The translations under genes were made by a program, and so were the position numbers. The notes beneath the pieces were generated by a model. It saw nothing but the letters and a program-made list of their open reading frames with translations. It was not told where the DNA came from and did not search any database. A stretch of DNA of 63,420 nucleotides, filler included, from Reclinomonas americana ATCC 50394 (taxonomy: Eukaryota): the NCBI GenBank assembly GCA_048213135.1. It is 6 parts of 4 records of this genome, joined end to end, with 100 filler letters (N's around TTAATTAATTAA, not from the genome) between each part and the next. Parts side by side here need not be neighbours in the genome. Positions count along the whole stretch, not along the records: positions 1 to 19,596 come from PS015194.1; positions 19,697 to 26,610 come from PS015194.1; positions 26,711 to 47,053 come from PS015194.1; 3 more parts are not named here. One strand, 5' to 3'. Below, in pieces: positions 10,248-38,640 of this stretch (its first letter is position 1; each line of letters opens with the position of its first letter).

Positions 10248-13200
10248 CGACAAAAAAGTCAGAAGACAATGGAGCCCACACGACGTTGCTCTGTGGCAGA
10301 CGAACCATTTTCAATAGCCACTGTTTGAGCACATGCAATCGAAAGCAACAGTGAGCTGATGGGGCTGGCAGACGAGCGACAGCATGGGGAAATGGTAACT
10401 GACGCACCGGGAGAGGCTGCAGTGGTGAACCAGAGAATGTCACCCCGTCGCGACGACACAGTGTCGACCGCACGGAAGTAATAGGTCTGTTGTGGCGTGA
10501 GCGACAGCAAAACAGCCGCGACAGTCGTGTCGGATGAGCTGGCAGTTGAGGCTGGCAGTGCGGACACTTGTGTCGGAGGCGACACTGTGTTGTCGAATGC
10601 ACTGATGGACTGTGCAAGCTCGAAGATGTTGGCCGTCGCCGCGAGACCACCGGCATTGATAATGCCATTGAGTACAGCGCTCGTGGAAGTGACGCTGCTG
10701 GCGGCCACCGTGCGCACAGATGCACCTACAGCAAGCAACAGTGAGCATGGTGGACAGTCATTCGCCGCTGTGGTGGTGTACACAATTACCGAGGGTGGAG
10801 AACGAGCTGAGCGACGACGTGTGGCTGCCAGTGACCGATCGGAAGTAGTACTGGGTGGACGACGACAGACCGCCGAGTGTGACAGACACGGTGGTCGTTG
10901 TGGACCTCGTTGTAATCAAATGGGAAGAGGACAGGCTGGATGCCAGCAGCGCCACTTGTGGACGACCGTGGCTGCCAGAGTCAACAGAGCTCGACGTGAC
11001 GGACGTAGCGGCAACGGGAGACGCCGGCAGTGTCACTCGCCGAATGGTGTGATTGCTCAAGTCTGCGAGCATCGTTTTTCATGAGTGAGATCACAAAACG
11101 CGGAGAAAGGTAAGTAGCGTACCGCCAATCAGCAGCGATTGACTGGCGCCACAGAACGCCACTCCCGACTGAGATTCATGCACGCACACAAACAGAAAGG
11201 TGATGAGCAACCTTGCAAAAGAGAGAGAGAGACGAGTGCGAGACGAACTGGTTGTGAAAATCGCGCGACACTGCCGAGACCGTCGGTGCTTCCCGCGGAG
11301 CCAGAACTGCCTGCCACCAAAGACACGGCACCAGCGGCGTCGATCAAGCGCACGGTGTTGCCGAACTGCGCATCATAGAGACGCAGGTGCGTGTGTGTCA
11401 GGTGGTGAAATCTCCTCACAAGCCGTCGATCGCATCAAACCTCGGTGACATAGACTCCACCAGAGAGCACGTCCACGGCGACAGCAAGTGGCCGAATGAA
11501 CCGTGCATACTGCCCGTCGGCGTTGGCATACCCAGACGAACCGAGCTGGCCCGCGAGCGTGGTTACGGCCAGCGACTGCAGATCGATTTTTTGCACCACC
11601 TGCGAATTGTTGCCGGCAACGTACAGACAACGGCGTACAGAGTCGACGACCACTGCTGTCGGCGAGCTGAAGCTGCTGCCACTGGCAACGGTGCTGGTGG
11701 CACCAGCGGCAGTCGTCAACCTGAACAAGCGGGTGACAGGAAGTGTGAGGATTGTAGACGACGAGAAACAGGCTGGTGAACGCACCGGATTCGTGAGTTG
11801 CCAGTGTCTGCCGTGTACACTTGGTGTGTCGTGGGATCGACGGCAATGCCACTCGGCGAGCTGAATTGAACTTGAGTGCTCGTCGCACTATCCACAAGTC
11901 CGCTACTACCAGACCCGGCGTGAACCGTCACCAATCCTTGATNNNNNNNNNNNNNNNNNNNNTGATACGACGGATTGCATGGTTGCCGGTCTGTGTCGTC
12001 GACACATCCCAACATGTGAGACAACGGCAGTACCGCGGAGCACAGAACGGTATCATACGCACATCGGCAACATACACGATACCCGTGATTGCATCCATGT
12101 CGACGTCGTGCGGGCTGCACCGTGGCACATTGATCAGTGGGATGAGAGAGTGAGAGAGTAAGAATAGACCATCTTCGCCCCAAAACATACCTATGGAACG
12201 TGGCTCCACTAGTGGTGGCCCCATCGACGAATCCGGAGCTGCTGGGCGTGCCAGCAAACAGCGATACAGTGCCAGCCGTCGACATAGTGCGGATGACGTG
12301 GTTCCTGCATCCCGAGGAGGAACAATCAGCTGTCGCGCAGAAAGCAAGCGCTCATCCACAAACAAATAAGCACGCACCCCGAGTCGGCAATGTACGCCAC
12401 TCCGGTCTCATCGCATCGAATGCCCTGCGCGCGCGCGCACACACACACGTTCGGGAGGTCAGCGGCACAGAGAATAGAGAATGAGGCCGTCGGAAAAGAA
12501 TGGGCAATCCCGTACGCACTGCAGGGCTGCTGAATCGCGCCACGGTACCAGTGCCACTGACATATCCACTGACGCCACTGCTGCCGGCCACAGTGCTGAC
12601 GACTCTCGTGGCGGTTGTGACACCGAATGCCGACGGCACGCGAGACACCTCAAACGAGGTGGTCAACGCGCCTTCGTTATTCGTATTGACCGTGGCCTGC
12701 AGTGTCGCTGACAAGGTGGTGACAGTGGAGGTCCCAGATATCGCAGTCGATGATCCTGCAAACACACATGCACTTGCACAGTCAGCAAGAGTGGCTCACA
12801 GTTTACATCGCGATCGTACTGACCAAGTGAGAGGAACGACGAGGCCGAAGCCGTCGTGGAACCCACAACCAGGCGGAAATAGTACAACGTGTGTGCCGCA
12901 ATGCCAGTCACTTGCACGGTCACCGACGTATCCGCGCTTCCACTGACGGTGGCCGGCGTGGCTGACAGTCGTGCTGCCGGCAACAGCACAAGACGAACCG
13001 TGCTGTTGCCGGTATCTGCGTGTGATGAACAAGAGAGAGAGAGAGAGAGTGAGTCAGTACATGCGGTATGCAGTCGACTCGTGTGACAAGTACCTCCAAC
13101 GGCCGCGGCACCCGTCTGTGGCAGGAAGACGATTCCTTGCTGCACAAATGTCAAAGTAACGACAGGTCAGAGACTGTGCGCACACGTAGTAGAGCAGCGG

Positions 13201-16200
13201 CAGACTCACCGGTGACGAGAACTGGGAAGGAGTCGGCGAGTCGGCATGTCCGGCGGTCGTTGCGACTCCGGCAATGGTCGAGACCAATCCGGCGGCCGAC
13301 ACGGTGCGCATCGTGTGGTTCGCAGTCTGCATATGTGATGAGGTCGGCAAGAGCACGAAGAAAACAACCAGAAATCAGCACGTGTGATCGCACGCAACGT
13401 CGGCAACATAGAGCATGCCAGAAACCAAATCAATGTCCACCGCAGCCGGACTGGAGAAGAGCGCATCGGTCCCCGTCCCGTCCGTGCTGCCGCTGACTGT
13501 CAGCTGTCCGACAAAGGTGGTGACAGCAAATGTCTGCGTATCGATCTTGCGAATCGCATGGTTGTCTCTGTCGGCAACAAAGAGGAATGAACGCGCAGTA
13601 TCCAACGCCACGCTGGTGGGCGAACTGAATGTGGCCATTGTCCCGGTGGCGTTATCTGCATGGCCGCTAGAACCACTTGTGCCGGCCACTGTGGTAACCG
13701 CGCCGGTGCTGATCGTGATGCGCCTGCGTATGTACGAGTGCGTGAGGAAGGAGATAAACCCGGCTGCGTGGCTAGCAATAACAGCAACACATCGCACCGT
13801 ACGCTGTGGTTCTGCTGGTCGGCCACGTATACGACCTGCGAGGCCGAGTGGACTGCCACACCAGCCGGATGACTGAACGATGCCGATGTACCAGTCGCGT
13901 TTGTGCTGCCGGTAGAACCCGTACCGGCAACCGTGCGTACCGTACTGCTGGTGGTGATGGTACGAATGGCGTGGTTGTTATACTGTGGTGCACCACCATG
14001 TCAGCGCAACAGAAAAGAATTGCAACTCCTTACAAGGGGAGCACGCACATCGGCAATGTAAACAATGCCAGTCNNNNNNNNNNNNNNNNNNNNNNNNNNN
14101 NNNNNNNNNNNNNNNNNNNNNNNNNNNNNNNNNNNNNNNNNNNNNNNNNNNNNNNNNNNNNNNNNNNNNNNNNNNNNNNNNNNNNNNNNNNNNNNNNNNN
14201 NNNNNNNNNNNNNNNNNNNNNNNNNNNNNNNNNNNNNNNNNNNNNNNNNNNNNNNNNNNNNNNNNNNNNNNNNNNNNNNNNNNNNNNNNNNNNNNNNNNN
14301 NNNNNNNNNNNNNNNNNNNNNNNNNNNNNNNNNNNNNNNNNNNNNNNNNNNNNNNNNNNNNNNNNNNNNNNNNNNNNNNNNNNNNNNNNNNNNNNNNNNN
14401 NNNNNNNNNNNNNNNNNNNNNNNNNNNNNNNNNNNNNNNNNNNNNNNNNNNNNNNNNNNNNNNNNNNNNNNNNNNNNNNNNNNNNNNNNNNNNNNNNNNN
14501 NNNNNNNNNNNNNNNNNNNNNNNNNNNNNNNNNNNNNNNNNNNNNNNNNNNNNNNNNNNNNNNNNNNNNNNNNAGGCTGTCAACATCCACATCACTCGGA
14601 CTGCACAAAGAGCACACGTGAGCACACGAAGATCAGTGAGATTGAGCGAGCGAGAGAGCGAGCGCACTTTCTGAATGAAGCCGCCAGAGAGCTATTGTCA
14701 CTGAAGCCAGTCACACCGGCTTGACCGGCCAGTGTCGTCACCGATCCTTGTTGCGTGACCTTGCGAATTGTGTGATTCCTAACGGCACAGTAATCAGATC
14801 CGACTGTCACTCAGCTGAGACATGCAATGCGTGCCCTCTCACCCATAATCGGCCACCAGCACGTTACCGTTGCTGTCGACGCAGACGCCCTATTATCGGC
14901 ACCGACAAACAACAATAAAGTAAGGAGGTATCGATTGTCACGACAGCGGCGTGGTGCAGCATCCGAACCCGAAGCCCGCTGAACGAGGCAGAGGGGCCCG
15001 ACGATGAATCAACGGCGCCTGTCGACTGAGCGACACCGGCCAACGTGGACACGGAGACAGAGCGATCAAAGGCGGCCGCCGACTGCGAAATGTCGAAAGA
15101 GGCGGCCAGGCGAATGGCACTCTGAGCGTTACCGGTGCCTTGCAGCGTGGCAGAAGAGGTGGCGATGTTTGTGGCTCCGTCCGTGGAGACAACGGCACCT
15201 GTTTCCACACACACACAGAAAGACCAAGTTTGGTAACGAACGAGAATCCAAGGGTGTGTGGACTCCACCGCTCACAGACCTGCAGTGATAAACGACCTGA
15301 TCGAGGTCGCCGACTGTCCCCCAGAGGCAGCACGATAGTAGTATGTCGTACTCGGCTGCAGTGCCGACACATCGGCACTGATGCTGGCTCCTGTGATGCC
15401 AGTCACCGTGGCGGGAGTGGCGGCGACGGTGGACGGTGGAAGAGCGACCGAGCGAATCGTGTGGTGTCCCGTATCTGCAACAGTACGACAGTGAAACAAA
15501 GGGAAGGACGACATCGCGACGCGTCAAGCCCACACACACCGACGACAATGGCAGCAGAGAGTGCCGACGAATAGTCGACACCCGCCTGTGACATCAGGGC
15601 AACGAGGAACATGTGATCACAGACAGTGGTTGCAATGGAGCGACAAAGCACGTACCGGCTGTGACAGGGAGCTACTCGCATCGACCAGAGTCGACACAGC
15701 TCCTGTGGATGCGGAAATAAGGCGTACAAGAGAGTTGCCGGTCTGTGGCTGCGCATGAGTAATTGTGCGCTAATCACCAACAACCATCATCGGCACGCTC
15801 ACCTCGGCAACGTACAACACATTGGAGAAGACATCAATGGAGATACTGCGCGGCGTGGAGAAACGAGCAGTGCTGCCATCCGCGGCGTCCGTCGACCCCG
15901 TCATGCCTGTGGACGTTTTTGTTCGTTCAATCTCCGAGCAGATAGAGCGCGGAACCAATGCACACAGGCAGTGAAGTGTACGCACCAACAGCGCCGGCCA
16001 ACACACTCAATTGTCCATTTGTCAGGTCGACCACGCGCACCACATGATTGCTCGAGTCGGCAACGTACAGCAGCGAGCGGGTGGAGTCGACAGCCACTCC
16101 CGTCGGCGCATTAAGACCAGCACTACTGTCCACAACAGTAGACGTGCTACCGGTGCCCAGGGCAACTTGCCTGTTGTGTACAAAGGACCAAACGCTGGTG

Positions 16201-19200
16201 AGTACTTGTTCACATCAAGTGCGCACTCGATGCCAGCAAGGCAGACCTGATTGCATTGTTGTTCTTGTCGGCCACATAGACAACTCCCCCACTTGCGTCC
16301 ACCGCCACGTCGGTTGGCTGATTGAAGCTTGCCAGATTTCCAGCACTGTTGTCGCTGCTGCCACCAGCACCAGTGCCGGCCAGTGTGGTAAGGGAGGCAG
16401 CGGAGAGCTTGCGTACCGCATGATTGCCAGCCTGCGTCACACACACATACACACATTCAGACAACCGACCAAAGGCAACGCACACGCACACGACACTGCA
16501 ACTCACATCGGCAATGTACACGTCACCAGTCGGTCCGTCGACATCGCAACCGGTCGGACTGCATCTCGGCAATTCAATGGACAGGCAGGCATACGAGAAA
16601 AAGCAGCATCAAGAAAGTCTGCACGTACCTGCTGAATCTGGCACTCCGTGCCGGTCCGTCCACAAACGCTGTGGAGGCGTACGCGCCTGCCACTGTTGTT
16701 ACTACACCCGCAGATGTCACTTGTCGGAGCAGCGAATTTCTGTGCACCCTAGCAGTTTAGCGCACACAAGGAAGACTTGGCCAACACACGTACACACACA
16801 CACACACGCACCCAGTGTCCACAATGTAGATGACACCACCGGCTGAAGCACACACTCCCTGCGCAGAGAGACTCAGTCATAAAGGAAGGATATGCTTGAA
16901 AAATAGGACACAACGCACTTGTGGTGACTGGAACCTTGCACCGCTCCCAGTCCCATCGGTGTGACCACCCGAGGACGTCACTCCGCACAGAGTGGAAACG
17001 GAAATCGGTCGGTCAAACGCCGCGAGTACGGGAGACAGAGAGAAGGAGTTGGTGAATGGACCGGCTCCAAAGGAGGCGACCTTGCCGCGCAGCGTCACCG
17101 ACGATGCGGTAATCGAGCTCGTGCTGACAGTCAGAGTGGTAGCTGCAGGCGCCTGAACCGCCACAACCGCCAGTGTGTCGCCGTACTGCGGCGGAGTAGG
17201 ACTGCCGACATCGGCCTTGATGCGGAAGTAGGTGGCGTGGTCAGAGGCCAGATTGCCGAGGCTTACAGTGAACGGCACTGGACCAGTCGACAGTGCGGAG
17301 ATGGTACCAGCCGAGTACGTGGTCACGCTGCCACTCATTCCACGGTCGGACGACACGTCGAACGACACGGTCACTGCCAGGCCGCCATTGCCATCCACCG
17401 TGCCCGTCAACACTGCCGAATTCGTGGTGACACTGGTGGCGACGGTAGTGGTCGCCAGTGGCACTGTAATCGTGGTGAACGACGTCGAGCTGCTGTACTG
17501 CACCGTAGCGCCACTGCCACTCGAAAGGACGGCGATACGCACGTTATAGGTAGTGCCCGGTGACAGCGAGCTCGCTGAGGCGGTGATGGTCACGTCGATT
17601 GACAGGCTCGCAGAGGCCGTGCCGGCGGCCAACGACGTCACCCCACTCGCAAACGTGCTGTCCGTGGTGATCTCAAACGATGTCGAGGCCGCCGGTCCAC
17701 CGTGCACATTCACCGTGCCGGACAAGCTGGCGGCAAAAGGCAGAATGCTGCTGACGGAAAGAGACCCGCTGGTTGGTGGCGTTGTGGTTGCAAATGACAC
17801 AACAGAGCCGTACTGCGTGCTGGCACCGGAGCCGACAACGGCCAGAATTCGGAAATAGTACGTCGTGCCGGGCTGCAGTGCCGACACTGTGGTGGTGAAC
17901 AGCGAGTCGCCCGAGGAACCGTTGGTGAGGGTGCCGGCACTGGGCGTGGCCACGAGTGCGGTTATTCCCGCGTTGGTGGCCAGCTCAAACGAGACGGTGA
18001 CAGCCAGCCCTCCATGAGCATTGGCCGTGCCTGTCAGCACTGCCGATACGAAAGTGATGGATGACGCGGAACCGGTGGTCGCCGTCGGTAGCGCCAGAGT
18101 GGCGAACGAAGAAACGAGACCACGCGACCCAGAAGCCACAGCGCGATAGTAGTACGTAGTCGACGGTGCCAGCGAGTACAACGGCAACGATATAGACGTT
18201 AGACTGTTGCCTGCAACCGAGAGTGGCGTGGCTGGCACAGTGACAGTGGGGACCAGTAGGCGGCGGATAGTGCTGCTGTTTGCGTCTGCAACATTGCCGC
18301 ACACATGTGTCAGCCAGCTACCATGTGTCTCACGAGACGGGAAAGGAAGCCGTACCGGCAACATAGACTGCAGTCGGATTCTGCGATTGAGATGGATCAA
18401 CCGCAATGCCTTGCTGCGCGCCAAGAAGCAGACAACGAATCAGGGTTGTGATCTTTTTGTAGTGAAGGGCGCACAGTTGCAAAGCACTCACCGATCCATC
18501 AAAGAGTGCCGCCATGGCTAGGCCGTCGGTCCAACCAGTGCTGCCACTAATGCCGGCCAGCGTCGTCACAATGCCTGCACTCGTCATCTGCCTCACAGTG
18601 CTTCCCTGTGCTCGATAACATTGGTGAGTTCAACAACAGTGAATAGCAACAAACAGACACAGATAGGCACGCAACGTCCGTGACATACAGCACGCCAAAT
18701 GTGGGGTTGACCGCGACTGATGTCAACGACGAGAACCGTGCCGCTGATCCTTTGCCGTCCACCACTGAGGCGCTGGCACCACTCAGTCCGGCCAATGTGA
18801 ACACAGACGTGGTCACCAGATCGACACGACGGATGACACGATTGCCACTGTCGGCCACATAGGCCAGCAGCCCGTCGCTCGTGACGGCCACATCGCTTGG
18901 CAAGTTGAAGGAAGACTGCGTGCCAATGACGCTGTCTACGGCACCAGGAGCAGCGCCCGCCTGTCCAGCAACGGTGGAACTCACACCGGCGTATGTGACG
19001 CGACTATACAGATTGACACGTGAGCAAACGACGGAAGCATCGAATTGGGGAAAATGAAAGCACACAAGATACACGCACCGCAGCAAGTGGTTGTTAACGT
19101 CGGCCACGAACACGGCACCGCCGGCGACATCAATACCTCGTGTGGTGTCAAATGTAGCGGAGGAACCAGAGCCGTCGGCGTGGCCTGCACCTTGACCGCC

Positions 19201-22200
19201 GGCCAGTGTCGACACAACGCCTCCAGAGATGCGACGAACCGCCTGATTGCCGCTCTATGTACATTCACAAACACGCACACAAGTAAATGCGCTGCGTACA
19301 AAACAATAAGGAAAACACAGCAACTGTCTCTACTACGCACATCGGCCACAAAAATGTCACCCGTTGTCGTGTCCACGGCAACGTCGGTTGGTCTGCGTGA
19401 GGAAAGATGCAGATGAATGACAAGCAGAAGGCAAATGAAGAAGGCGGTAAGCAAACGAGCGCACGAATGAAAGCTGGCCATCAACGCCGACGAGTTGTCG
19501 GCGTACGCTGCGACGCCCTGCTTTCCGGCCACTGTCGTCGTACTGCCGGCAGTAGTCACGCGGCGCACGACGTGATTGCTGCGCACCCATGCCGCANNNN
19601 NNNNNNNNNNNNNNNNNNNNNNNNNNNNNNNNNNNNNNNNTTAATTAATTAANNNNNNNNNNNNNNNNNNNNNNNNNNNNNNNNNNNNNNNNNNNNCACC
19701 CAAGAAAACCGTCAGAGTCACAAAGAAGCGGTTCTCCCAGGCACTGGCGTGTGCGACAGAACTTGCGGAAGGTGGCAAAAGACACGTAGCCATTTGTGAA
19801 GCCACCGAGTCCCGACTGACCAGCCACAGTGGTCACCACACCTGCCGTGGTGACCTTGCGGATTGTGTGATATCTAGTCCAAACACAAGGTAAGTTTTCG
19901 CGACTGCGCTCATGAAGCCAGCCAGCAAGTGACCGCTGCGCTCACGCAACGTGGGATCGGCAACATACAGGGAACCTGCCGTGTCAAGGCTCATTCGCTG
20001 CGAAACACACTGAGCATCCTCGGAAAGCAAAAAATTCTCGTTCATCGACGTACCGCGGGAGCGCCAAAGAGAGCCGAGGAACCCGTGCCGTCAGTTGCCC
20101 CCGCAGACCCCGCGGTGCCAACAAATGTGCTCACTGTGGCGCTAGTGCCAAAAACCGACGACGACAGTGCCAGTTCGAAAGACGCACTTACAGTGCCTGA
20201 ACCTTGCGCATTGACAGTGCCCGAGATAGAGGCGGTGGTCAGCGTCACGCTGGATGCAGAGCCAGTGGCGACCGTGGGTGCTGATGAGTAGCGTAGCGCG
20301 GTGAGAGGAGCGAGGAAGAGAAGGATAGGGAGAAGGAGGTGAAGACTCAACTGGAGGACGACGTGGTAAACGACTGCAGAGATCCGTACTGTCCGTTGTC
20401 GCTCGATGCGCGATAGTAGTACAACGTTGCTGCCTGCAACTGGGTGAGCGCCAGCGAGATGCTCGTGTCGGAAGTGCCGGAGACAGTGGACGGTGAGGCA
20501 GTGACGGAGGTGGCAGCCAGTGTGATGCGCCGAATGGTCACCCCCACGAAATCTGCCGACAAATCGCCATGCGGGTGAGATGCGCAAAACGCACAACGTG
20601 GCACACATAATATATGTGTAAACGCACCGGAGACAAGCAGGAAGCCACGGACAGGATCATACGCAAGGCCATTCTGCGCAGGCGGGTGAGTGCATTCAGT
20701 TAATTATTCACACGAAGCTGTGTACGCACTGGGAACGCGAATTGCGCCTGATTGCCTGCTCCATCTGCAGAACCGGTGGCTCCGGTTCCGGCGAGAGACG
20801 TGACGAGCCCGGCGCTCGAAATCTGCCGCACGCTAAAATTGTTCACCTGGCCCAGAACCGTTGAGTAACAGAAGCGGGTGATACGCTAACGGAGGTAGTA
20901 CAGAAGCAACGAAACATCGCCGACATACACCACGTTGGCCACAGGATCGACTGCCACGGTCGATGGATGATTGAACCTTGCCGCGGACCCACTGCCGTCA
21001 GTGTACGCGCAGCTGCCATTGGTGCCAGCCAGCGTCGACACTGCCATGGAGGAGATGACGATTTTGCGGATCGAGCAATTGTTGTAGTCGGCTACGTAGA
21101 GCAGGCCACGCCCAGAGTCGAGCGCAATGTCATTCGGGCCGTTGAAACGCGCTGCACTACCGGTGCCATCGGCGGTGCCTGAACTCGTGAGCGTGCCAGC
21201 CACGGTGGTGGTAACACCGGCGTATGTCACCTTGCTGCAATGATCGACCAGCACCGTCAGCAACGATTTCCCTTACTGGAACTGCGCTGGCACATACCGA
21301 ATGGCATGATTATTCGAGTCCGCGACATACACCACACCAGATGCACTATCGACAGCGAGACCACCGTTGCTGTTGAATTGAGCGGCGGGACCTGTGCCAT
21401 CGACAGCACCAGCGGTATTACTGCCAGCGAGGGTCGACACGTAGTTGGCGGCGATTTTACGAATGGCGTTGTTGAGTTGCTGTGGAACGCATGAATAAAC
21501 ACAAAGCAATACACACATGCAAGTCATATCAGCAGCTACAGTGGTGCGGTACCTCGCTGACGTAGAGCGCGCCGGTGGAGTTGTCGATCGCCACGGCGGT
21601 CGGGCTGTGCCCGCACGCATGTCAATGACAGCTGGGGCAAAGAAAGCAGGAGGCACGCAACTGCTTGAAAGTAGCAATGGCAACGGATCCGTTGACGAAA
21701 CTAGCCGTGTTAGGATCTCCGGCAACCGTCGTCACCACGCCACCGGTGGTGACCTTTCGAATAGTGTTGATCCTGGTCACGAGAATACACACGACGGCGG
21801 GGTAAGTGTGTGCACATCACTCAAGGAGACACAGATCTGCTTTCAATACGCACAAAATGTCGGCCACATAGAGGGAACCAGAGCTGTCCAAGCACATGCG
21901 CTGATCGCAGAAGAGGTGAGAATTCGAGACATATAAAACAAAGCATCGCGCGGTCAGCGTACTCACACCCGGTCCGTTGAATCGCGCATTCGAGCCCGTG
22001 CCGTCAGAACCGCCTGTTTGCCCTGCGCTGCCGACGAGCGTGCTCACAGTGGCAGTAACCCCAAAGGCCGATGACGACAGAGCTACCTCGAAAGCAGCCG
22101 ATGCACCGCTAATACCCTGGGCATTGATCGTGCCAGACACGCTAGCTGTGGTAGCCGTGACAGCGCTAGACGAACCGGTGACCGCCGTGTCGACTGCAAA

Positions 22201-25200: not shown

Positions 25201-26458
25201 ACGTTTTGCGCAGTAGCATCCACCGCAATGCCATTGGGTAGATTGAACCTGGCTGCGGCGCCAGTGCCATTTGCAGTTCCAGACGTGCCGTTGCCGGCCA
25301 ACGTGGAGACAAACTGCCCGGATATCTTGCGCACGGTGTGATTGATCTCCTGCAGGATGCAGAATACCAATCAGAAATGAGCACGTGATAATGAGACAGG
25401 CAGCGGTACTTGGAGAACTGACGCACCTCAGTGACATACACAGTTCCACGCAGCGTGTCATATGCGGCGTAGATTGGTCTGTAGCAAGCGGTAAGAGCTT
25501 GTCGCACAGCGTACCGACGATGCACAACGCAACTGATTGAACGTCGCCTGCTGTGTGGAGCCGTCAACATAGCTAGCCGTGCCGGAGATGCCAGCCACGG
25601 TCGTGACCACACCGGCCGACGTCATTTTGCGAATGGTGTGAGAGCTGCAAGGCAGAAGAAGGAAACGGTGTGGGTCTGAGAGAAAGAGACATCGACGTGA
25701 TGAAGAGAGCAAGGGTTACCCGTGGTCAGGAATGTAGGCATTGCCAGCGTTGTCAATGCACAGGCGCTGTGGAACAAGAAGCCACACATCAGCGACTTTT
25801 GTGATCAAATGTCAAACAGCAACAGCACGACGCACAGCTGGCTGATTGAATCGCGCAGCCGTTCCCGTGTTATCCGTGTGTCCCGCCATGCCAGCGGCAC
25901 CAGCCACCGTTGTCACCGACACAGTCGCTCCAAACGAACTGGACGACAAGCCAACCTCAAAGGCGGCCGTGACGCCACTGATGCCCTGAGCATTCACAGT
26001 GCCGCTCACAGTCGCCGTGATGGCCGTGACACTGCTCGACGAGCCGGTAGTGACCGCGATGGCTGCGCACAACGGACGGCTGTGAGACGGCGCAGTAGTG
26101 GAAGATCGAACCGGCGTTGCTCACCTGGCGTGCTGAACGACAACACGGATCCCGTCTGACCGTCATCGGCGACTGCTCGAAAGTTGTACGTGGTACCTCT
26201 CGTCAGGTTGGACAGGGAGGTGCTGATAGCGGTGGAAAAGTTGGCTGACACGGTGCTCGGCGACGCCGTGAGGTTGAGGGCTTTGAGGGACACTTGGCGG
26301 ATCAGATGGTTGTTGTTCTCTGCGGCAACACAGGAACATAAAGTGTGAGGTTAATGATCATAACAATTGTGGAACGCACACACGAACCGACAACAAACAG
26401 GCAGTCAGATGTCAGGTGGTAGCAAATGCCGTTCTGCGGGGGTCGCGTTCAGAGATCG

Positions 26459-26528
<70 letters not shown>

Positions 26529-26827
26529 CTAGTAGTACGTGACGAGTACGTACTTAACTAACGACGTACTAACGTTTAACGTACGGTAACCGTACGACGG
26601 TAACCGGTTANNNNNNNNNNNNNNNNNNNNNNNNNNNNNNNNNNNNNNNNNNNNTTAATTAATTAANNNNNNNNNNNNNNNNNNNNNNNNNNNNNNNNNN
26701 NNNNNNNNNNACCGAACCAACCGACACACGAACCGAACCGAACAAACAACGACGACGTACGAGAGTAGTCGTAGGTAGGTAGGTCGAAGTAGCGTCGTCG
26801 TCGGTCGGGTCGGTCGGTCGTAGAGAG

Positions 26828-26899
<72 letters not shown>

Positions 26900-29019
26900 A
26901 TGAACTTGCAGAAGGCTTACTAACCAAGCCATTAAACTTGGAACTCAGCGGTAAGCCATCCGCAAATCCAGTCACCGTTGACGTACCGGCAAGCGTGTTG
27001 ACAACACCTCCCGGTGTTACACCTCGTACAACGCTGTTGTTGATCTGCACGAGCGTGTTGGGAGGCAGCAAACAGCAGCGACACCAGATTGTTTGACGCA
27101 ACTTCGGTAATGAAAAACCTATCACGGATCTTGTCATACGCAATGTCAAGCGGCTTGTTGAGCAGCGCTCCCGTGCCAGTGCCATCTGCATAACTGGCTG
27201 ACCCAGGCGACCCAATAAACGTAGTCACAGCCGTTGTTGACACGTCAACTTGGCGGACCACATGGTTGATAGAATCGCACACGTAGAGCACGCTGCCGCG
27301 AAGCGCCAGGCCAGCAGGAAACTGAAACTGAGCAGAGGTGCCCGATGCGTTTAGGAAGCCGCTGGAACTACCCGCCAGTGTGGTGGTCACTCCCGCAAAA
27401 GTGACGCGCCTGCGTTGGCGAGAGAAATGAGCGCGACAGAAGAGAAGGGATGTGTGCTCTCTTGGTGTCACTCGCTGCAACGCGAGAGAAGCAAGAATAC
27501 AGATAAAGAGAAAAGAGAGACTCCAACGCAAGACTTGAAGAGCGCGGTAAAGGCATTCTCCTCCAACGCAATCAGCCAGCTACGCACCGGATTCGATGGT
27601 TGCTCTGGTCCGACACATAGATGTTCTGGTTCGTTGAATCAATGGCCAGTCCATATGGTCGGTTAAACGACACCGCCGTTCCAGTTCCATTGGCACTTCC
27701 GCTGCTCCCAGTGCCCGCCACCGTTGACACGTAGTCGCGTGCGATCTTACGCAGCGCATGATTTCCATACTGCGGTTTGGCCAACGATTGAGTGAACAAA
27801 GAGGGGCAACCTGACCTTCCAGCGACACATCCTCTCACGCACATCAGTCACATACAGGGCACCGGTGCTCTCGTCCACAGCGACATCTTGCACTCTGTTG
27901 AAAATAAGAGACACGTGGTGAGCAGGCTGCTCAACATGTCAAACACTTCCTCTCTTCCTCTCATCGCAACGATCCAAAGCGCGCCACTCCAGTACGGTTG
28001 CCGTCGACAAAACCGCACGAGCCGGCAGTGCCCGCAAACGTAGTCACAACACCGGCCACGGTCATCTTTCGAATGGCACAATTGCTGCAATGTTCACTCA
28101 CGAATCAGCACAGCAACAATGCCAAACCAAGTGCTCAAGTCTCACAATACAATCACCTAAAGTCGGCAATGTAGACGCTACCGGAGCTGTCTGTGCAAAT
28201 GCCCTGCATACAAAAAGCGGCTGTCAGTGAGAAAGCAAATGGTCAACTTGGCACGGAGCAGAGCACGCACCGCTGGCACATTAAATTTGGCAGCGGTGCC
28301 TGTGGCATCCGTGGTTCCACTCGAACCCTGCGTGCCGGCAATGGTCGCCACTGACGTCCGTCCATCAATGGCATTCGTGTTGGCCGAAAAATCGAACGAC
28401 ATGGCAACGCTGCTGCCGAAATTGGCATTCGCGGAGCCATTCAGTGTGGCTGCAAGGGCGGTGACGGAGGTGGCTGACTGCGTGGTCATCGTCGCAAGGC
28501 CTGTGTAGGTGCTGAGCAAGTGAGAACCAAGAAGGGGGAGAGAGGAGAGGAACGGAGGTTGGGAGAGAAAGCAGAAACGAGTCTCCTGAACCCAAGGAGA
28601 CGTAAGCGACATGACATGCATCAGTGGAGTTCCCCACGCAACTGGTGGTGGCGAACGTAGACGTAGTTCCGAGAACTGTGCCGTCGATCAGACGCGGGCG
28701 GAAGTAATACGTTGTGGATGGTATGAGGTACGTGGTGGCAAGCGAAATCGAGGTACTGCTGCTGCCACTGACAGTGGAAGGAGAAGATGATATTGCCGAA
28801 GATCCAATGTCAAGTCGACGAATAGTGCGATTCAGTCGGTCTGCGAATACTTGAGATTGGCGACAAATCTCAATGCAGCAAGATCAAGATCGCGCAACGC
28901 ACCTGCTACCAGGAGGGAGTTGGATGCCGCGTGGTATGCGATACCATACTGATTGCATGAGATGTAGAAGGAGAGACAGACGTAGCGAGCGTGAGATCAC
29001 ATGAACACACACACACTCA

Positions 29020-29050
<31 letters not shown>

Positions 29051-32000
29051 TCTGGTGCACAAACAAACTGCACCCTATATACACATCAATATGCTCGTTT
29101 TTGTAACGAGGCACGCACCGCGCAATTAAAGCGAGCAATGCCACCTGGTCCGTCGGTGCTGCCGGTCGTCCTGTAGTACCCAGCCATCGTGGTGACCACG
29201 CCCGCTCCGGTGATGCGCCGCACTACATGTGCATCGCACTGGCAACGAGCACACGATAATCAGCACAAAGGCTGCAAACACGAAAAATCAACCAACACGC
29301 ACCTCTGCCAGGTAAATGATGTTGTTAGTGGGGTCAAGGGTGGTGAATACCGGGGCGTAGAACCGAGCGACACTGCCAGTGCCATCAGCGCCGCCAGATG
29401 ACGACGCGGTGCCGACAAGCGTGGACACTTGACCGGAAGACAAGTCCATTTTTCGCAGTGTATACAAACCGGCGTCAACAATGTAAAGGAATTGCCGACT
29501 GCCATCGACAGTGACACTGAACGGATCCGTGAATCTCGCACTGGTTCCAACCGCGTCGGTTGAACCTGACATGCCCGCACTACCGGCAATCGTGGTGACT
29601 ACTCCCGCAGTTGTCATGCGCCTGCCCGTTTGACAGTGGTGTTAGCGACGAGTGCTTGACTCTTTTGCATGGCACTGACAGCTTACCGAATGATCTTATT
29701 TCCACGATCGGCAATGTACACCACTTGGTTGGGGTTGTCAATCGACAGGCCCGACGGATTATTAAAGGATGCACCTGAACCTGTCCCGTTTGCCGACCCG
29801 GATGAAGGAGGTGGTTGCGCGCCAGCCAACGTGGCAACGACGCCGTTCGCGACCGTTCGGATTAGATGGTTGTTGTACTGCACACACAGCGAAGAAACAT
29901 GGGCGAAACTATCTCCTGCTTTCTCCTACAACAGTGCAACAGACTCACATCGGCAATCAGCAGAGCACCGGTAGCAGCATTGATGGCCAAGTCATACGGA
30001 CTGCACACAACCACTCGTGAGGTCTACTTCGTCTCGAATCGCAGAAGAAATGTATGTACGCACGAGCGGAACAACGCAGACGCCGCTGCGCCGTCTTGAT
30101 ATCCCGAAGTTCCGGGTACACCAGCCACTGTCGTCACCACGCCGGTAATGCGAACCTTGCGAATGGAGTGACTCCTGGTTGTGGGAGACAGGCAGGGCAT
30201 CAGCGAGTAAAACAAAAAAGCCTGGGTCACGGCGAGCGAGACGCACCCATTGTCGACTACGTAGCAGTGGCCGGTAAAGTCATCGACTCGAATGGACTGC
30301 ACAGGATGGAAAAGACGAGTACGAAAAAATGAGGGAGAATGCGGTCAATTTGTGCACGACACACAGGAAGTAGATTGTAAAAGCACTCGGTACGCACGTA
30401 CGGCTCGCTGAAACGGGCACTCGATCCCGTTCCGTCGGTCGTGGCAGAGGAGCCAGCACTGCCGGCAAGAGTTGACACGATCACAGATGCACCGACAGCG
30501 TTGGCCAATGGCGACCAATCAAAACCTACGGGGATCGATGTGCCACCCTGCGCATTTGCTGTGCCCTGCAGAGTGGCACGGACGGCAGTGATGCTGGTGG
30601 CGGATGAGGTGGTGGTGGTGGTGGCTGCATAAAGGGAAGGGGAGGGCGAGGGAGAGGGAGAGAGACAGGGGGGGAGAGGGAGAGGGAGAGGGTGAGGGTG
30701 ATGGAGAGGGTGAGGGAGAGGGTGAGGGAGAGGAAGGGAGGGAGAGAGAGAGAAAGAGACAGGGAGAGACAAGGAGGGAGAGACAAGAGGGAGAAAGAGA
30801 GAGGGAGGGAGAGGGGTACAACGAGCGGAAAGAGACAATGGGTCAATGATTACATGCACACAGGCGCACACACAACACAACACAACACGAATAAGTGACA
30901 AGCTCCACAAGTACAGGCCAAAATCAGACGTACCTGCCAGGGTTGTGAACGACACGGCAGAACCCACAGCTCCCCAGGTTCGGTCGGCAGCTAGGTAAAA
31001 GTACGTGGTCGACGGGCGCAGTTGTGACACCGATCCTGTCAGTGTTGAAGTCGAGGTGCCGGTGGACGAAGTTGGTGAGGCGCTCATGTATGCAGGTGGC
31101 AGAGTGACACGACGGATCTGACCGGCGCCGAGGTCTGCGTGCCAGATTGAATGAGCTCCGGCTACTCACGACAAACGTGAAAGTTAAGGATGGCACATGC
31201 TCACCCACAAACATCATGATCGAGTCTTGTACCACCATGCCGCGCTGCGTGCAATAGTGGATGTGAGGAGAACTGCAGATAGTCAATAAGAGAGACCGAC
31301 AGTGGCGTACCGGGGTGCACAACTGAGCATTGACGCCGATGCCGTCCGCGGTTCCGCATACGCCCGTGTAGCCCATGACCAGTGTGACTACGCCAGTGTT
31401 TGGGTCGATCTGTCGAATGGTAAACGTCGTTATCTGTGACACGCGCAATGGGTGTTATGATCCCACAAATCACTGCATCTCTCGCAGCCAGAGCCACGGC
31501 ACGCAAATACTCAACATCGCCCACGTACACCAAGTTTGCCACGGGGTCAAACGCGATACCGAAGGGACCACTGAAGCGAGCGGCAGAGCCCGTCCCGTCT
31601 CTGCTGCCAGCCTGCCCCGACACGCCGCCCAGCGTCGAGATCACGCCGGTGGCAAGGTCAACCTTGCGAACAATCGAGGAATTGTATTCCGACACATACA
31701 GCAGACGTCGCGTCGAGTCAACCACCACAGCCATGGGATCCAGAAGAGAACCACCCTGTCCAGCACCGTCCACGGCAGCCGCATTGCCTTGACCTGCCAC
31801 GGTCGTGGTGACACCGAGGAAGGAGACAGCTCTGCAGACGCGCGCGTAAGCAACAAGCTCTGCGTGAGCACACGGTTCTGTTTCTCAATCGTCGTACCGA
31901 ATCACGTGGTTGAATCGGTCGGCCACAAACACAGTTTCCATGGACGTGCTCACGGCGAGGCCAATAGGATTGGAGAACGCGGCACTTGTACCAACGGCGT

Positions 32001-33723
32001 TGTCGGTATAGCCATTGGTACCGCCAGCAAGCGTTGTCACAACAGCGCCGCTAGTGACTTTGCGAATCGAGTAGTTATCGGTCTGCAGAAAAAAATGAGA
32101 ATAGCGCAGGGTGCTGGTCGTGGAATGACGTACAACGCACCTCTCCAACATAGAGGTCGCCCGTGATTATGTTGATCGCGATGCCAGTAGGGCTGTACGC
32201 ATAAGAAAGAGAGTGAACTGCATGTCGAGAGCACATAACGCACTTCACGTCGCACGACGCAACGTCCTGAACCGCGCAGACGTCGAGGTGGCATCGACGA
32301 AGCCCGGGGTGTTGACAGCGCCAGCGAATACGGAGACGGAACCTCCGGATGTGATCTTTCGTACCACGTGTTCGTTCCTAATCAAGGCTGTCAGCAACAA
32401 CAAGTACTCACGCACACACAGCGAGCGCGACGCACGTAGGAGCGTACGAATTGCCTGCTGCGTCCATTGTGATGCCCTGCAAGTCGGATAAGCACCTGCT
32501 GAAGAATCACAATCACCGAATGCGCAACAACACGTGCATACCCAGCCACCACTGAATCCAGACGCGACAAGGGTTGTTATCGTCGGTGCCGTCACCGACA
32601 AATTTGCCGAGACGGTGGCCACGGCGAATGCGTTGACGGTGGTGGTGGAGCTGCCCCTTGGACTCAGTGAGCCATTGAGCGCAGCACTTGTGGTGGCGAT
32701 GCTTGACGCCGCATTCGTGGTGGCCAATGGCACTACAGTTGACCGAGTGAGCTCGATTGTAGTGTGATGTCATGAGGCGAAAGATGTGATGGTATCGCAA
32801 CAGATGGTGGCGAACGACGCGATGCTACCGACCACACCGGTACCAGCCGCTTGGTAGTAGTACGTGGTGCCGGGAAACAGCGACGATGCAGTAACACTGA
32901 TGTTAGTGGTGGTTGACCCGCTAACAGTTGATGGCGAGGCCGTGAGTGGAGACGGCGGCAGCTCGATGCGGCGAATGGTGTGTCTATTGTTCTCTGCAGA
33001 GCAAAAGGCGATGCAAGGCTTTGTGATCAGAATGGCGGTTCAGTTTTTTTTGTACAGGAATACACACCGGCAATTAGGAGCGCAGGACGAGTCGAGTCCC
33101 ACGTGACGTCCGTCTGTTGTACAAACCATTAGTATTCTTGCGCCATCAGGTGCGGGTGGAGAAAGAGTAGGTGCGACTCACCACAGTGCCGAAGGAAGAG
33201 TTAATTCCGTAGCTGTTGTTTGTCCCGGTGGAGCCGCTAGTACCGGCTATCGTCGTGACCACGCCGCTACTGGTTACCATTCGAACCGTGAAACACGCAG
33301 ACTGTAGCGCGTGAGGTGACAGTAAGCAAACCGAAAAAAACGCCAGGGAGACCAGTTTGTTGCTCCATGACACGCAACATCGCCAACGTAGAGGACATTG
33401 GCCACCGGATCAATCGACATGCCTCCAGGCGATTTGAAAAAGGAACCAGTTCCAGTGCCATCCGTGCATGAAGTGCACACACCAGCACTTCCCAAATATG
33501 TGGAGACACTGTTGTTGGTCAAATTGACCTTGCGCACAGTGCAATTGTTCACGTCGGACACATAGAGGAGGGAGCGGCTCGTGTCCAAAGCCAAGCTTCC
33601 AGGGTTGTTGAAGCGTGCGCCGGTGGTGCTACCGTCACTCGTGCCAAAATTACTAGTCCCACATAGACCGACAAGAGAGGAACTCGAGCCCGCATAGGTG
33701 ACGCGCCTGCATGTGGTCCGTGA

Positions 33724-33757
<34 letters not shown>

Positions 33758-33816
33758 NNNNNNNNNNNNNNNNNNNNGGGTAGGTACGGTAGGTAGGTAG
33801 GTAGGTAGGTAGGTAG

Positions 33817-33863
<47 letters not shown>

Positions 33864-33920
33864 AGAGACAATGAGTGAATGCATGCATTGTGTGGTTCTC
33901 AGGCGCACTCACACACCTAC

Positions 33921-33967
<47 letters not shown>

Positions 33968-36900
33968 GAGGGGAGGGAGAGAGAGGGAAGGAGGGAGGCA
34001 GAGAGGGAGGAGAGAGCGAGTTGCACAACAATACAGACCGAATACAGTGATTACCAGAGTCGGAAACGTAGATGTAACCGGAGGCGGAGTCGACCGCCAC
34101 ATCCGACGGTGAGGAGGCAGCCAATCCGGTTGCCGCACTGGCGATAGTCGAAACAATATTTTGCGAAATTTTGCGAATCGCGTTGTTTCCAGACTGTACA
34201 AGAGCAAGCTAAGAGTGCACCCACAACGGAATGGGGGAGAAAAGAGTGACCTACCTCGGACAAGTACAAATCGCCGTTGGTCAGGTCGATATCGACGCCA
34301 GTTGGACTGCGCATCGGTGAGCCGCGAATTGCGTCATGACACCAGAGGACGTGCATGCAATGCAATCTACTCACGTGTTGAACAAGGCACTCCCAGCATC
34401 TCCATTCGTAAAGCCGGTGGTATTCGGCTTACCAGCGACAGTGCTCACCACACCGGTGCGCGTCACCATGCGAATGAGATGGTTTCTGTGCAACACGTCA
34501 GGGGAGAGAGTTGGGTCTCGGGAGCATGGGCGAGACTGGCTTCGCAACTGAGTTGCAACGTAGTAATTTCCGCTGGCGTCCATAGTTCCGCGCTGCACGC
34601 AACAGTGTGTGAGAGAGTCACACGAGAGCGAGGAAAGCGAGAATAGCGCGAGCGCACGTTTGGGTTGGTGAACCGAGCAGTCGAGCCGACACCATCGACC
34701 CAGCCAGACACATTGGCCGCGCCCGCCAGCAACGACACCGCTGGCGGCATGTTGAACGAGGCTGCTATATTGGTCGCGCCACCCGGATTGAGTGTTCCGC
34801 TCAACAACGCCGATGCGCTGTCGATTTGCGATGATCCCACCGTTGTCACCGTGACAGCTGGAAGGCGCGATTGTGAATCCAACAGCACAAGCGCATACAC
34901 TTTCGCACGTGGCTCTCTCACCGAGTGTGGTAAATTTGCGAGACGAGAACTTGTTGGTGGTATCGGCAGAGGAAACAGGCACTGCAATATCCGCCAAAGA
35001 GAAAAGTGAGAAGAAACGAGCTGAATTCTGTCGCAGCCAAACAAGATATCCCATCACCGTCTGCATCCGCGTGGGCGTCTGCAGGCGCCACCCGCAGCGA
35101 CAAGACATCCTCGGCTACCACGACGGTGCCGCGAGTGGCGCGCACGCGCACATCCAGCGTCGCATGTGACACTGGTCGAGAGAGCCACAATTGCTTGCGA
35201 TTGGCGATCCGCACAGAAGCAGCGTCCACTCCGCCAGTCACCGACCACGTGAGGTCGGTGGAGTCGCCTGCAGGCTCGTGGGTGCTGCCGACATGCAGCG
35301 TGCCCAACGGCACAGACGGGCTCCACTTGCCGTCCTGGTAACTCAGTGGTTCGAAGCGAACGGTGGCCACGGTGGCTGGCGAGAGAGGAAAGGGGGGGAA
35401 GGGAAAGGGTGAGGGGGGAAGGAGAGGGAAGAGGGGAGAGGAAGGGGGAGAGGAGGGGGGAGAGGGGAGAGGAGGGGGGGGAGGGAGGAGGGAGGAGGGG
35501 NNNNNNNNNNNNNNNNNNNNNNNNNNNNNNNNNNNNNNNNNNNNNNNNNNNNNNNNNNNNNNNNNNNNNNNNNNNNNNNNNNNNNNNNNNNNNNNNNNNN
35601 NNNNNNNNNNNNNNNNNNNNGAGAAAAGGGAGAGAGAAAGAGAGAGAGAAAGGGAGAGAGAAAGGGAGAGAGAAAGAGAGGAGAGAGGAGAGGAAGAGGG
35701 GGGGAGGAGAGAGGAAAGAGAAGAGAGAAAGGTTGGAAAGGAAGGGGAAGGGGAAGGGGAGAGAGGAAGAGGGGAGAGGGGAAGAGGGGGAGGAAGGAGA
35801 AGAGAGAGCAGAGAGGAAAGGGAGAGAGGAGGGGAGAAGGAAGGGGTAGAGGAAGACTGCGGAAGGAGGATGCAGTTGGAATGCAAAAGCAGCGCATGCT
35901 ATCATCACGTTCTCTCTCTCCACATGCGCGCGACTCACCGTTGCGGACCACCAGCAACGTTCTCGCCGTGCCATTGCATTCGACCTCCACCCGCACCTCG
36001 CTCAGTCGCACACCATCCACAGCAAACACCAAGCGACGACCATCGTCGTCCACACGAATCACCGAGGTACCATCAACTACGCGACATGCAGACACCGCCG
36101 AAGCAACGTTGTTGCTGCTGCTGCTGTGAAGCACGCCAATGACAGCACCGCGAGTGGAGGGCGGTGTGTAGTTGGACGGGACGAGAGACAGCAGCGGGAG
36201 TGCAACGTCGATCGGTTTCTCATGGCCACCACCTGCGTGCACAAGAGTCAGAAGCAGGAAGACGGAGGAGAGGGCGGTGCACACAAAGCGAGACAGTGCG
36301 TGTGAGAGAGAGAGGGATGGAGAGGAGGCGAGCTGCAAAACTGCATGCATGATGTGCAGCACAAAATCATACAGGAAAAATCATCAGCAGAAAGGTCAAT
36401 GGTATCGCACGTGCGCTTGTATAAGACACGCTGTGATCACTGTGCGACGACATGACCTTCTACAAGGGCGACTCTTCACGCACACACACAAGGAGAAAAA
36501 GAAGTTGACAGAGATGCGCACATCAGTGACAGCAACACAAGTGGCAGAGCGCGCAGCCACACGCACGCGCAACAGCACACTCATACACACGCACACACAC
36601 GTACACACACACTTGCAAAGCAGACAGGAAACCCTTTGTGTGACTCCGTCGACGGGATAACTCAAGTTGGCTCGGAGAAGACACACGCGTGACGGAGCAA
36701 CATGCGGAGACGTGCGCGTGCGCCGCCGCTCAACAAAGTGTGCCCACAATCCACCGCAGCGAGCGACAAGAGAGGAAACACGAAGAACGGAGCAACATAA
36801 AGAATGTATTCGCGACCAAGAGGCGGTCACATGATGCGAGAAGAAGAGCGAGCAAGTGAGAGAGAGTGTATGCGTGTGCGTGCACGTGTAAGCTTGTGCA

Positions 36901-37036
36901 CAGAGGCAGCAGCACTCTCACCACGGGTATTCCCGGAGAAGATATCGATATCTTCTTCTTCTGCCTCTGTGTGCTGCAGTAAGAGCACCAGTGTGCACAC
37001 CAAAAGCGCGAATGCAACGCGCAGTGAGAGTGCCAT
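5208..37036 (-). CDS. Giant secreted/surface protein: signal peptide, degenerate cadherin/Ig-like N-terminus, >=12 FN3[NHL propeller] modules, plain FN3 domains, Cys Ig/TIG-like repeats, C-terminal legume lectin
   Basis: ATG at 37036 gives MALSLRVAFALLVCTLVLLLQHTEA (signal peptide). Dozens of short exons join in phase wherever checked. NHL blades read VSTLAG..G..DG.G.AARF..P.G.AVD...YVAD..N..IRK. The lectin reads GDGFALVL..GLGFEG..VAVEFDTWYN..DP and GFVGFTAA.G..Q.VDILSWSF. The single-gene model crosses several gaps, so it is inferred. Confidence 0.7.
7525..10184 (-). repeat. About 5 divergent Ig/TIG-like repeats, each with a Tyr-x(1-2)-Cys strand (part of the giant gene)
   Basis: EYVVC (~9778-9792), SYHVC (~9329-9343), SYMLC (~8747-8761), PYTVC (~8338-8352), VYLC (~7658-7669). 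Several are preceded by TIG-like starts such as GSFRPISARG..VLTVIG and TDFHPRRIP. Confidence 0.45.
10790..17152 (-). repeat. FN3[NHL six-blade propeller] modules 10-12
   Basis: Modules at ~17152-15281, 15199-12824 and 12756-10790. Each has an FN3 first half, NHL blades, then an FN3 second half with (T/Q/L)YY(Y/F)R. Confidence 0.85.
17155..18092 (-). repeat. Three uninterrupted FN3-like domains in one long exon
   Basis: PTATTGSASSITFVSAVLTGTAN...LQPGTTYYFRI...QYGSVVSFAT repeated three times in ORF 16877-18424. Confidence 0.85.
19597..19696. other. Artificial contig spacer N44-TTAATTAATTAA-N44 (also at 26611-26710, 47054-47153, 58697-58796, 62077-62176)
   Basis: Identical 100-nt layout five times. 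The 12-mer puts stops in all six frames. Confidence 0.95.
26460..26897. repeat. (TG)n microsatellite in an intron, broken by a contig spacer
   Basis: Long TG runs at 26460-26526 and 26830-26897. Confidence 0.9.
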
Positions 37037-37284
37037 GGTGCGAGAAGAAAAAGTGTGTGTGTGTGTGTGTGAGTGAGTGCTGTTTGTTTCGTGTCGCGAT
37101 GATGTGTGACTCCTTCCGTCGGTCGTGTGCACCGCAATTTGATGTGTGTCCGCATTCATCAACAGCAAGCTGTTTCGCGCGTGTCAAGCACCTCCAGAGT
37201 ATCAATAACGCAAGCAGCAGGGTAGATGACAACAACAAGGCCGGTCCGTTCGCTCTCGGAATAATCAAGAATTCGAAGTCTGCA

Positions 37285-38595: not shown

Positions 38596-38640
<45 letters not shown>

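Follow-up and report, generated by a model that had tools for sequence, protein, structure and literature searches.

Module map and gene structure of the array

The window analysed here, a stretch of 63,420 nucleotides (filler included) of DNA from Reclinomonas americana ATCC 50394 (GenBank assembly GCA_048213135.1), is a gapped draft with 20 N runs from a GC-rich (∼57%) eukaryotic nuclear region. Between positions 34852 and 10794 its minus strand carries one real, intron-rich eukaryotic gene with 11 nested modules, in each of which, as is well supported, an FN3-like domain of the PhoD_N/purple-acid-phosphatase-N type is interrupted by an NHL propeller in its C–C′ loop. Three hidden Markov models (HMMs), representing the N-terminal part of this domain (N-half), its C-terminal part (C-half) and the NHL blade, were built from pieces of the window and used in a six-frame search. 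The N-half HMM gave 14 matches in the window (independent E-values, i-E, 1e-10 to 1e-16) and the C-half HMM 15 (i-E down to 1e-28), and the 72 matches of the blade HMM fell without exception between 11228 and 34741 of the minus strand. Along this strand the order N-half, blades, C-half is repeated 11 times (M1–M11), the N-halves starting at 34852, ∼32724, 30619, 28492, 26054, 24117, 22188, 20275, 17140, 15190 and 12738, respectively. The original prediction, made from the sequence alone, had placed such modules here, and the HMM maps located them where it had expected them, its proposed test module at 24123–22272 being M6; it had, however, counted at least 12 modules where the maps give 11. 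Two peptides that it had quoted as the halves of one module are correctly located but belong to neighbours, the C-half at 22430–22272 closing M6 and the N-half at ∼22194 opening M7. The features of the array, all on the minus strand, are as follows.

10794..34852, minus strand: the whole array, 11 nested FN3-like/NHL propeller modules and three internal intact FN3-like domains (HMM maps and spliced alignment)
32806..34852, minus strand: M1, 413 amino acids (aa) when spliced, nine exons, with a 20-N run at 33758–33777 inside (HMMs, spliced alignment)
30941..32727, minus strand: M2, 440 aa, seven exons modelled, N-half and first blade degenerate (spliced alignment)
28647..30619, minus strand: M3, 435 aa, nine exons, six blades (blade HMM, spliced alignment)
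26129..28492, minus strand: M4, 422 aa, N runs at 26611–26710 probably concealing the 46-nt exon 8 (spliced alignment)
24199..26057, minus strand: M5, 431 aa, nine exons, six blades (blade HMM, spliced alignment)
22276..24117, minus strand: M6, 430 aa, nine exons of 222, 47, 111, 52, 182, 319, 120, 46 and 191 nt (spliced alignment)
20362..22188, minus strand: M7, 429 aa, nine exons, six blades (blade HMM, spliced alignment)
18098..20275, minus strand: M8, 475 aa, ten exons, seven blade starts, N runs at 19597–19696 within an intron (blade HMM, spliced alignment)
17141..18097, minus strand: three intact FN3-like domains without insertion, sharing a 520-aa open frame with the M8 C-half and the M9 N-half (Pfam, HMMs)
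15284..17140, minus strand: M9, 415 aa, ten exons (spliced alignment)
12834..15193, minus strand: M10, broken by a 500-N gap at 14074–14573 (HMMs, spliced alignment)
10794..12747, minus strand: M11, 434 aa, with an insertion in the C-half and a 20-N run at 11943–11962 (spliced alignment)
10412..10735, minus strand: a fourth intact FN3-like domain, directly after M11 (HMMs)

The minus-strand open frames between ∼10,400 and 35,000 are short and broken by introns, and the introns of the array are canonical GT..AG introns, mostly of ∼55–190 nt. Module exons were obtained with our own spliced protein-to-DNA aligner, which gave stop-free spliced paths of 413–475 aa per module, the M10 path crossing the 500-N gap. 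A plan of nine exons (∼222, 47, 111, 52, 182, 319, 120, 46 and 191 nt) is common to M3–M7, eight intron positions of identical phase are common to 8–10 of ten modules (M10 left out), and the junction between a C-half and the next N-half is in phase 1 in all eight cases solved. The N-half and blade 1 lie on one contiguous exon, as do blade 6 and the C-half. The window modules are 29–62% identical among themselves, and between M5, M6 and M7 the exons show 58–64% identity as against 44–47% in the introns. The shared introns and phases, together with the better conservation of exons, fit a coding gene under constraint, with modules that were duplicated at the DNA level together with their introns.

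The blade HMM and the spliced alignments indicated six blades in 10 of the 11 modules, as the original prediction had proposed for all that it counted in full, and seven in M8; the count of six was inferred across the 500-N gap for M10 and needs a degenerate first blade for M2. The extra exon of M8 (114 nt) lies just beyond the N-run pair 19597–19640/19653–19696 and has ∼55% DNA identity to the adjacent 111-nt exon, too little for a trivial assembly duplication, and it represents either a genuine variant with seven blades or a partial blade, or diverged copies that were misjoined. Pfam scans of window open frames gave matches to NHL (PF01436) of 31.7, 32.6 and 27.1 bits (cut-off 20), by which the blades belong to the NHL repeat family; TEN_NHL reached 20.6 and 16.6 bits, under its cut-off of 27.1. 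The 520-aa frame (16880–18439) matched PhoD_N (52.4 bits, cut-off 30), Pur_ac_phosph_N (40.6, cut-off 30) and fn3 (33.1, cut-off 25), and the Pfam match of the window C-halves was confined to the C-terminal part of Pur_ac_phosph_N (profile positions 27/42 to 93 of 93).

Two halves of one FN3-like domain

When compared by hhalign with a 104-column profile of the intact domain, the N-half profile was placed on columns 4–45 (probability 97.6%, E = 3.8e-12) and the C-half profile on columns 52–103 (probability 98.4%, E = 7.8e-15), so that the split copies hold the whole FN3-like domain, in order and with a single break. Columns 60–100 of the intact profile in turn match the E-F-G strands of canonical FN3 domains (titin, neogenin, FN3con), and the two results together identify the N-half as strands A-B-C, the C-half as C′-E-F-G and the break as the C–C′ loop. 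The intact copies, three within the array and one after it, which the original prediction had already singled out as an internal control, were aligned by MAFFT across the nested copy with the propeller as an insertion of ∼300 residues.

In the window, as well as in the bacterial homologues described below, arrays open with an N-half and close with a C-half, and nested halves adjoin intact domains. The M8 C-half is followed by the three intact copies and only then by the M9 N-half, and P0243, P0232, P0310 and the 922-aa L047 protein start, once past the leader, with an N-half and end with a C-half. The insert begins with the outer ‘d’ strand (‘VxTLAG’) and ends with the ‘c’ strand (‘xIRxL’) of the last blade. 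In NHL propellers, a ‘d’ start and a ‘c’ end amount to the 3+1 type of closure, which would set the propeller ends side by side and thereby let the FN3 halves close into one sandwich.

AlphaFold2 was run on module 2 (431 aa, 33 alignment rows) of P0243, a protein encoded in L001 from a Singulisphaera sp. metagenome-assembled genome. The model had a mean predicted local distance difference test score (pLDDT) of 94.9 and a predicted template modelling score (pTM) of 0.88, with every 10-residue block at 86 or above, and showed strands at residues 7–14, 21–28 and 34–41 in the N-half and at 377–384, 390–396, 404–413, 416–419 and 423–426 in the C-half. The blades close into one propeller in this homologue model, and its best PDB matches, NHL propellers, are 7djk_A (Z 44.6, root-mean-square deviation 1.7, 310 residues aligned) and 6g7w_A (Z 44.0), with 9ifo_A (Z 40.4) and 6fpt_A (Z 40.2) also among the matches. 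To offer the N-half a second possible partner, a competition construct was made in which module 2 was headed by the C-part of the intact FN3 domain that lies before it, with seven alignment rows, none from intact domains (mean pLDDT 90.0, pTM 0.81). The spare C-part reached block scores of 43, 58, 72, 81, 85 and 74 and was free of strands over residues 1–29, whereas the module's own C-half kept all its strands with a pLDDT of 87–93, a confident own C-half beside a poorly ordered spare one being what the nested arrangement predicts. From the pLDDT, pTM and secondary structure of this bacterial homologue we infer that an N-half pairs with the C-half of its own module. The hhalign tiling, the make-up of the array ends and the AlphaFold2 runs on the bacterial homologue thus all favour what the original prediction had proposed, namely a single FN3-like sandwich split by a propeller.

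Bacterial relatives and probable origin of the nested unit

Database proteins collected by a profile search (n = 380) were rescanned with the window HMMs, and seven of them carry the nested unit, up to five times, which contradicts the earlier statement that no protein repeating it was known:

P0310: four nested units in direct tandem
P0357: three nested units in direct tandem
P0232: four nested units
P0260: five nested units
P0243: three nested units
P0046: three nested units
P0259: at least one nested unit

The P0232 cluster includes MCX6887571.1 and MCX6887572.1 from Verrucomicrobiota, which are labelled ‘cadherin-like beta sandwich domain-containing protein’. Spliced window modules and six bacterial modules are collinear from end to end with 32–45% identity, a level comparable to the 29–62% among the window modules themselves, and the window exons carrying the N-half with blade 1 and blade 6 with the C-half match positions 4–76 and 354–430 of the bacterial module HMM. 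By these alignments the window unit is homologous over its full length, with the same insertion point, to intron-less surface-type units of Planctomycetota and Verrucomicrobiota.

A search with the N-half and blade 1 profile returned 13,912 matches; among the best 150 of these, multi-blade proteins dominate, P0046 is the sole nested one, and neither a close eukaryotic relative nor the product of the window gene itself was found. The C-half search of proteins of 178–2000 aa yielded nothing at E ≤ 1e-3, and longer proteins matched by the 520-aa frame were bacterial FN3-like tandem proteins alone, at no more than 45% identity. Full-length matches occurred in 3 of 121 genomes of the order to which the L001 genome belongs, two further ones being confirmed as nested, and in a sample of 301 genomes of the phylum, 12 had matches, with nested loci only in the L001 genome. 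In 351 Acidobacteriota-side and 351 Myxococcota-side genomes, with five candidates scored per genome, only propeller matches were detected, the six widest of which are not nested. A second gene of the L001 genome (L019 in G001) has one nested unit of six blades between two Vgb-lyase-like propellers in an open frame of ∼2,390 aa, which suggests that the unit moves as a cassette between bacterial multi-domain proteins. Two further proteins combine the same parts without nesting: P0020 (4033 aa) carries six copies of a block of six blades followed by an intact FN3-like domain, and in P0153 (2823 aa) pairs of propellers, twelve blades each pair, alternate with runs of intact FN3-like domains. As contrasts, both are useful for dating the insertion.

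The nested proteins from bacteria of the Planctomycetes–Verrucomicrobia–Chlamydiae (PVC) group (P0243, the P0232 cluster, P0046, L019, L046 and L047) resemble the window in the unit itself, in the insertion point and in a length of ∼430 aa, but they lack introns and have at most five copies as compared with 11. Furthermore, intact FN3-like or cadherin-like domains often stand between a C-half and the next N-half in the bacterial proteins and usually space the PVC units, whereas the eukaryotic array is mostly a direct tandem. The metagenome proteins P0310 and P0357 share with the window this direct tandem, in which the next N-half comes immediately after a C-half, but they have short blades of ∼40 aa similar to those of PknD and ‘Pizza’, only three or four units and no introns, and they form an outgroup to the window and PVC units.

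The best PDB sequence matches cover the propeller alone and comprise 9ifo/9pt5, the ‘Pizza’ designs, TRIM71, SOQ1 and NHLRC2. Teneurins and bacterial teneurin-like proteins (9ifo, 9pt5, 6fb3), which include the best sequence match of the propeller (E = 1.3e-46; structural Z 40.4), are extracellular and place a six-bladed NHL propeller beside an FN3-type domain, as the putatively secreted window protein is predicted to do. Abstracts of the teneurin papers present these proteins as a case of transfer from bacterium to eukaryote, and their domains stand in sequence (FN-plug, NHL, YD shell) and include one propeller that is not nested (PMC5851990, PMC13018210). Membership of the window protein in the teneurins was rejected, as Pfam scans of 29 + 81 window open frames (outside the array only frames of at least 95 aa) detected no YD/Rhs family, TEN_NHL stayed below its cut-off and the domain order is different. 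TcB/YenB subunits of ABC toxins set a precedent for the insertion of an NHL propeller, but their host fold is a YD shell, not an FN3 sandwich, and they have a single copy. NHLRC2, SOQ1 and TRIM-NHL proteins (TRIM71/Lin41) provide the best fold matches of the homologue propeller (7djk_A, 6g7w_A, 6fpt_A), although they have one terminal propeller in series after Trx-like or filamin/Ig domains, with neither a split host nor a tandem array. TRIM-NHL membership was rejected as well, since RING, B-box and coiled coil are absent from the window Pfam scans and the window has a tandem array with an apparent secretory leader. The original prediction had left room for the nested unit to belong to a family already described; no Pfam or NCBIfam model represents the composite unit, and the full texts searched gave no account of an FN3 domain with an NHL propeller nested inside it, nor did any curated family come to light. 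The unit is unusual, though not unique to this gene, and is built of known domains.

In the tree, ten window modules form one group, separated from the bacterial modules by a single branch (100/99), and upon rooting with the short-blade units the window clade (Shimodaira–Hasegawa-like approximate likelihood ratio test, SH-aLRT, 99) falls inside the long-blade PVC group (SH-aLRT 99 and 100). Most likely, to judge from the sequences, the unit came from bacteria. The bacterial unit would then have gained introns in the eukaryote and afterwards multiplied by tandem DNA duplication, a history suggested by the eight shared intron positions and by module boundaries that are in phase 1 wherever they were solved. 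With its 11 copies, the window array is the longest array of the nested unit in the searches made.

Surroundings, alternative readings and possible function

Upstream of the array, the open frame 36830–37183 contains, as read by eye and in a hydrophobicity scan, a short segment that is a possible exon 1 of the giant gene, and a second candidate leader is present in the frame 35346–36380. On the 3′ side of the last FN3-like domain, long beta-rich frames rich in Gly, Ser and Thr without Pfam match (7636–9559, minus strand) may be further, C-terminal exons of the giant gene or a separate gene. Pfam matches were also obtained for frames in the neighbourhood.

36977..37063, minus strand: putative first exon with a signal-peptide-like start, Met and a hydrophobic stretch of ∼19 residues followed by an acidic run
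2475..3113, plus strand: Dcp1-like decapping family (Pfam)
38639..39196, plus strand: peptide deformylase (Pfam)
39825..41018, plus strand: beta-lactamase family (Pfam)
47274..48023, plus strand: FSIP1 (Pfam)
54358..55155, minus strand: alpha/beta hydrolase (Pfam)

FSIP1 is a flagellar fibrous-sheath partner, and the families of the neighbouring frames together with the GT..AG introns agree with a nuclear genome from a flagellated eukaryote. Introns and flanks abound in (CA)n/(TG)n and (TC)n/(GA)n microsatellites (e.g. 26720–26900, 30520–30850, 33550–34050 and 34920–35900), and these translate to THTH.., VCVC.. and SLSL.. runs, which swell a mechanical list of open reading frames. A gap pattern of 44 N, 12 bases and 44 N is found five times (19597–19696, 26611–26710, 47054–47153, 58697–58796 and 62077–62176) and looks like a scaffolding signature rather than biology.

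Gene anatomy, nested unit, bacterial origin and, less firmly held, a secreted binding array together make up what we consider the best explanation of the locus, and a probable one. As the next N-half follows ∼6–10 residues after a C-half wherever the modules are in direct tandem, a C-half could instead pair with the N-half of the following module to give a circularly permuted sandwich, the propellers being plain beads without nesting. That pairing would orphan the halves at the array ends, as well as the M8 C-half and the M9 N-half beside the intact copies, and the short linker on which it draws is identical to the one between intact tandem copies. Moreover, a cadherin-like domain of ∼100 aa parts a C-half from the next N-half in P0232, and intact FN3 domains do so in P0243, which rules out pairing between neighbouring modules in these bacterial proteins; in the competition fold, too, it was the preceding C-half that was poorly ordered and the own C-half that was confident. 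We regard this permuted pairing as very improbable, and to the same degree the idea that the flanking halves do not form one folded domain and are only flexible linkers or degenerate remnants on either side of ordinary propellers. N-halves alone are indeed not recognized by Pfam and most C-half scores are under the gathering cut-off, but each half gives a strong score with the profile of the intact domain, each shows beta strands at high confidence in the bacterial homologue model, and neither occurs without the other in the 11 modules of the window or in any nested module examined from bacteria. Core residues are kept in the window and in bacteria, namely F33 in the N-half and L405, T409, Y411 and F428 in the C-half (M6 numbering).

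A decaying pseudogene array, or one that is partly an artefact of the gapped draft, could account for the five N gaps, the degenerate M2 and M11 and an extra blade beside a gap in M8; the stop-free, frame-preserving spliced paths, the conserved intron positions and phases and the better conservation of exons than of introns speak against it, as does the ∼55% identity of the extra M8 exon to its neighbour, which excludes a join duplication, and we think decay or artefact improbable, if not quite to the extent of the two possibilities above. Somewhat less remote, but still unlikely, is an array of the same architecture in which the propellers are catalytic, like the six-bladed lactonases, lyases and PAL-like enzymes, so that the protein would be a multi-enzyme array rather than an adhesin. 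Weak Pfam matches to SGL, Arylesterase and Vgb_lyase on the window and its homologues, the appearance of lactonases and PAL lower in the structure list (Z 24–30) and the two Vgb-lyase-like propellers that flank the nested unit of G001 are in line with such enzymes. The enzyme-family scores are, however, below or near their cut-offs, and the best sequence and structure matches are of the binding type (the NHL and TEN_NHL families, SOQ1, NHLRC2, TRIM71 and teneurin-like proteins).

Several points count against the nested, secreted array of bacterial origin that we favour. The sequence of the array is interrupted by five N gaps, and the seven blade starts of M8 and the degeneracy of M2 depart from a uniform six-bladed unit. 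The model read-outs are pLDDT, pTM and secondary structure, and they concern a bacterial homologue, not a window module; the alignment of the single-module run held intact FN3 rows laid across the insertion and so leans to the nested reading, and the structure search listed propellers only, model residues outside 41–379 being barely covered. The direction of transfer rests on outgroup rooting, and the tree does not resolve the branching inside the PVC group. The signal peptide candidate was judged by eye, and no membrane anchor could be assigned, the downstream hydrophobic stretches resembling low-complexity sequence.

The putative leader upstream, the binding-type NHL relatives, the leaders on bacterial homologues (the P0232 N-terminus is signal-peptide-like) and the FN3 backbone point toward a secreted binder. 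It is conceivable, though we hold it only tentatively, that the gene encodes a giant secreted or surface protein in which an FN3 backbone bears propellers at the FN3–FN3 junctions, each acting as one of several binding sites used in adhesion or capture. In an FN3 domain the C–C′ loop lies at the C-terminal pole, which would put each propeller where the next FN3 domain joins on, in keeping with a brush shape, and a rod or bottle-brush geometry of the array is plausible. More doubtful is the full scenario, namely that a nested cassette of the PVC type was captured by a flagellated eukaryote, fitted with introns and phase-1 boundaries and multiplied to at least 11 copies to yield an extracellular bottle-brush of ∼5,000 residues for multivalent capture or adhesion.

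The unit is a clean natural case of a domain of ∼330 aa inserted in a loop of a domain of ∼100 aa, with the composite reused as a repeat, and the intact copies in the same protein are built-in controls for the split domain. Annotation pipelines report just ‘NHL repeats’ and partial FN3 for such proteins, which a rule of N-half, six blades and C-half would recognize. The locus connects a surface module that is rare in bacteria with a giant gene of a eukaryote in which later steps, i.e. intron gain, symmetric phase-1 boundaries and tandem amplification, are visible. If the propellers bind, a single backbone would present 11 sites, each diverged in its own way, and were the full scenario true, it would be a bottle-brush for, e.g. 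prey, partners or substrate, with a propeller at each FN3–FN3 joint, and a second teneurin-like story in which a bacterial NHL surface module became a eukaryotic adhesion protein by a different architectural route.

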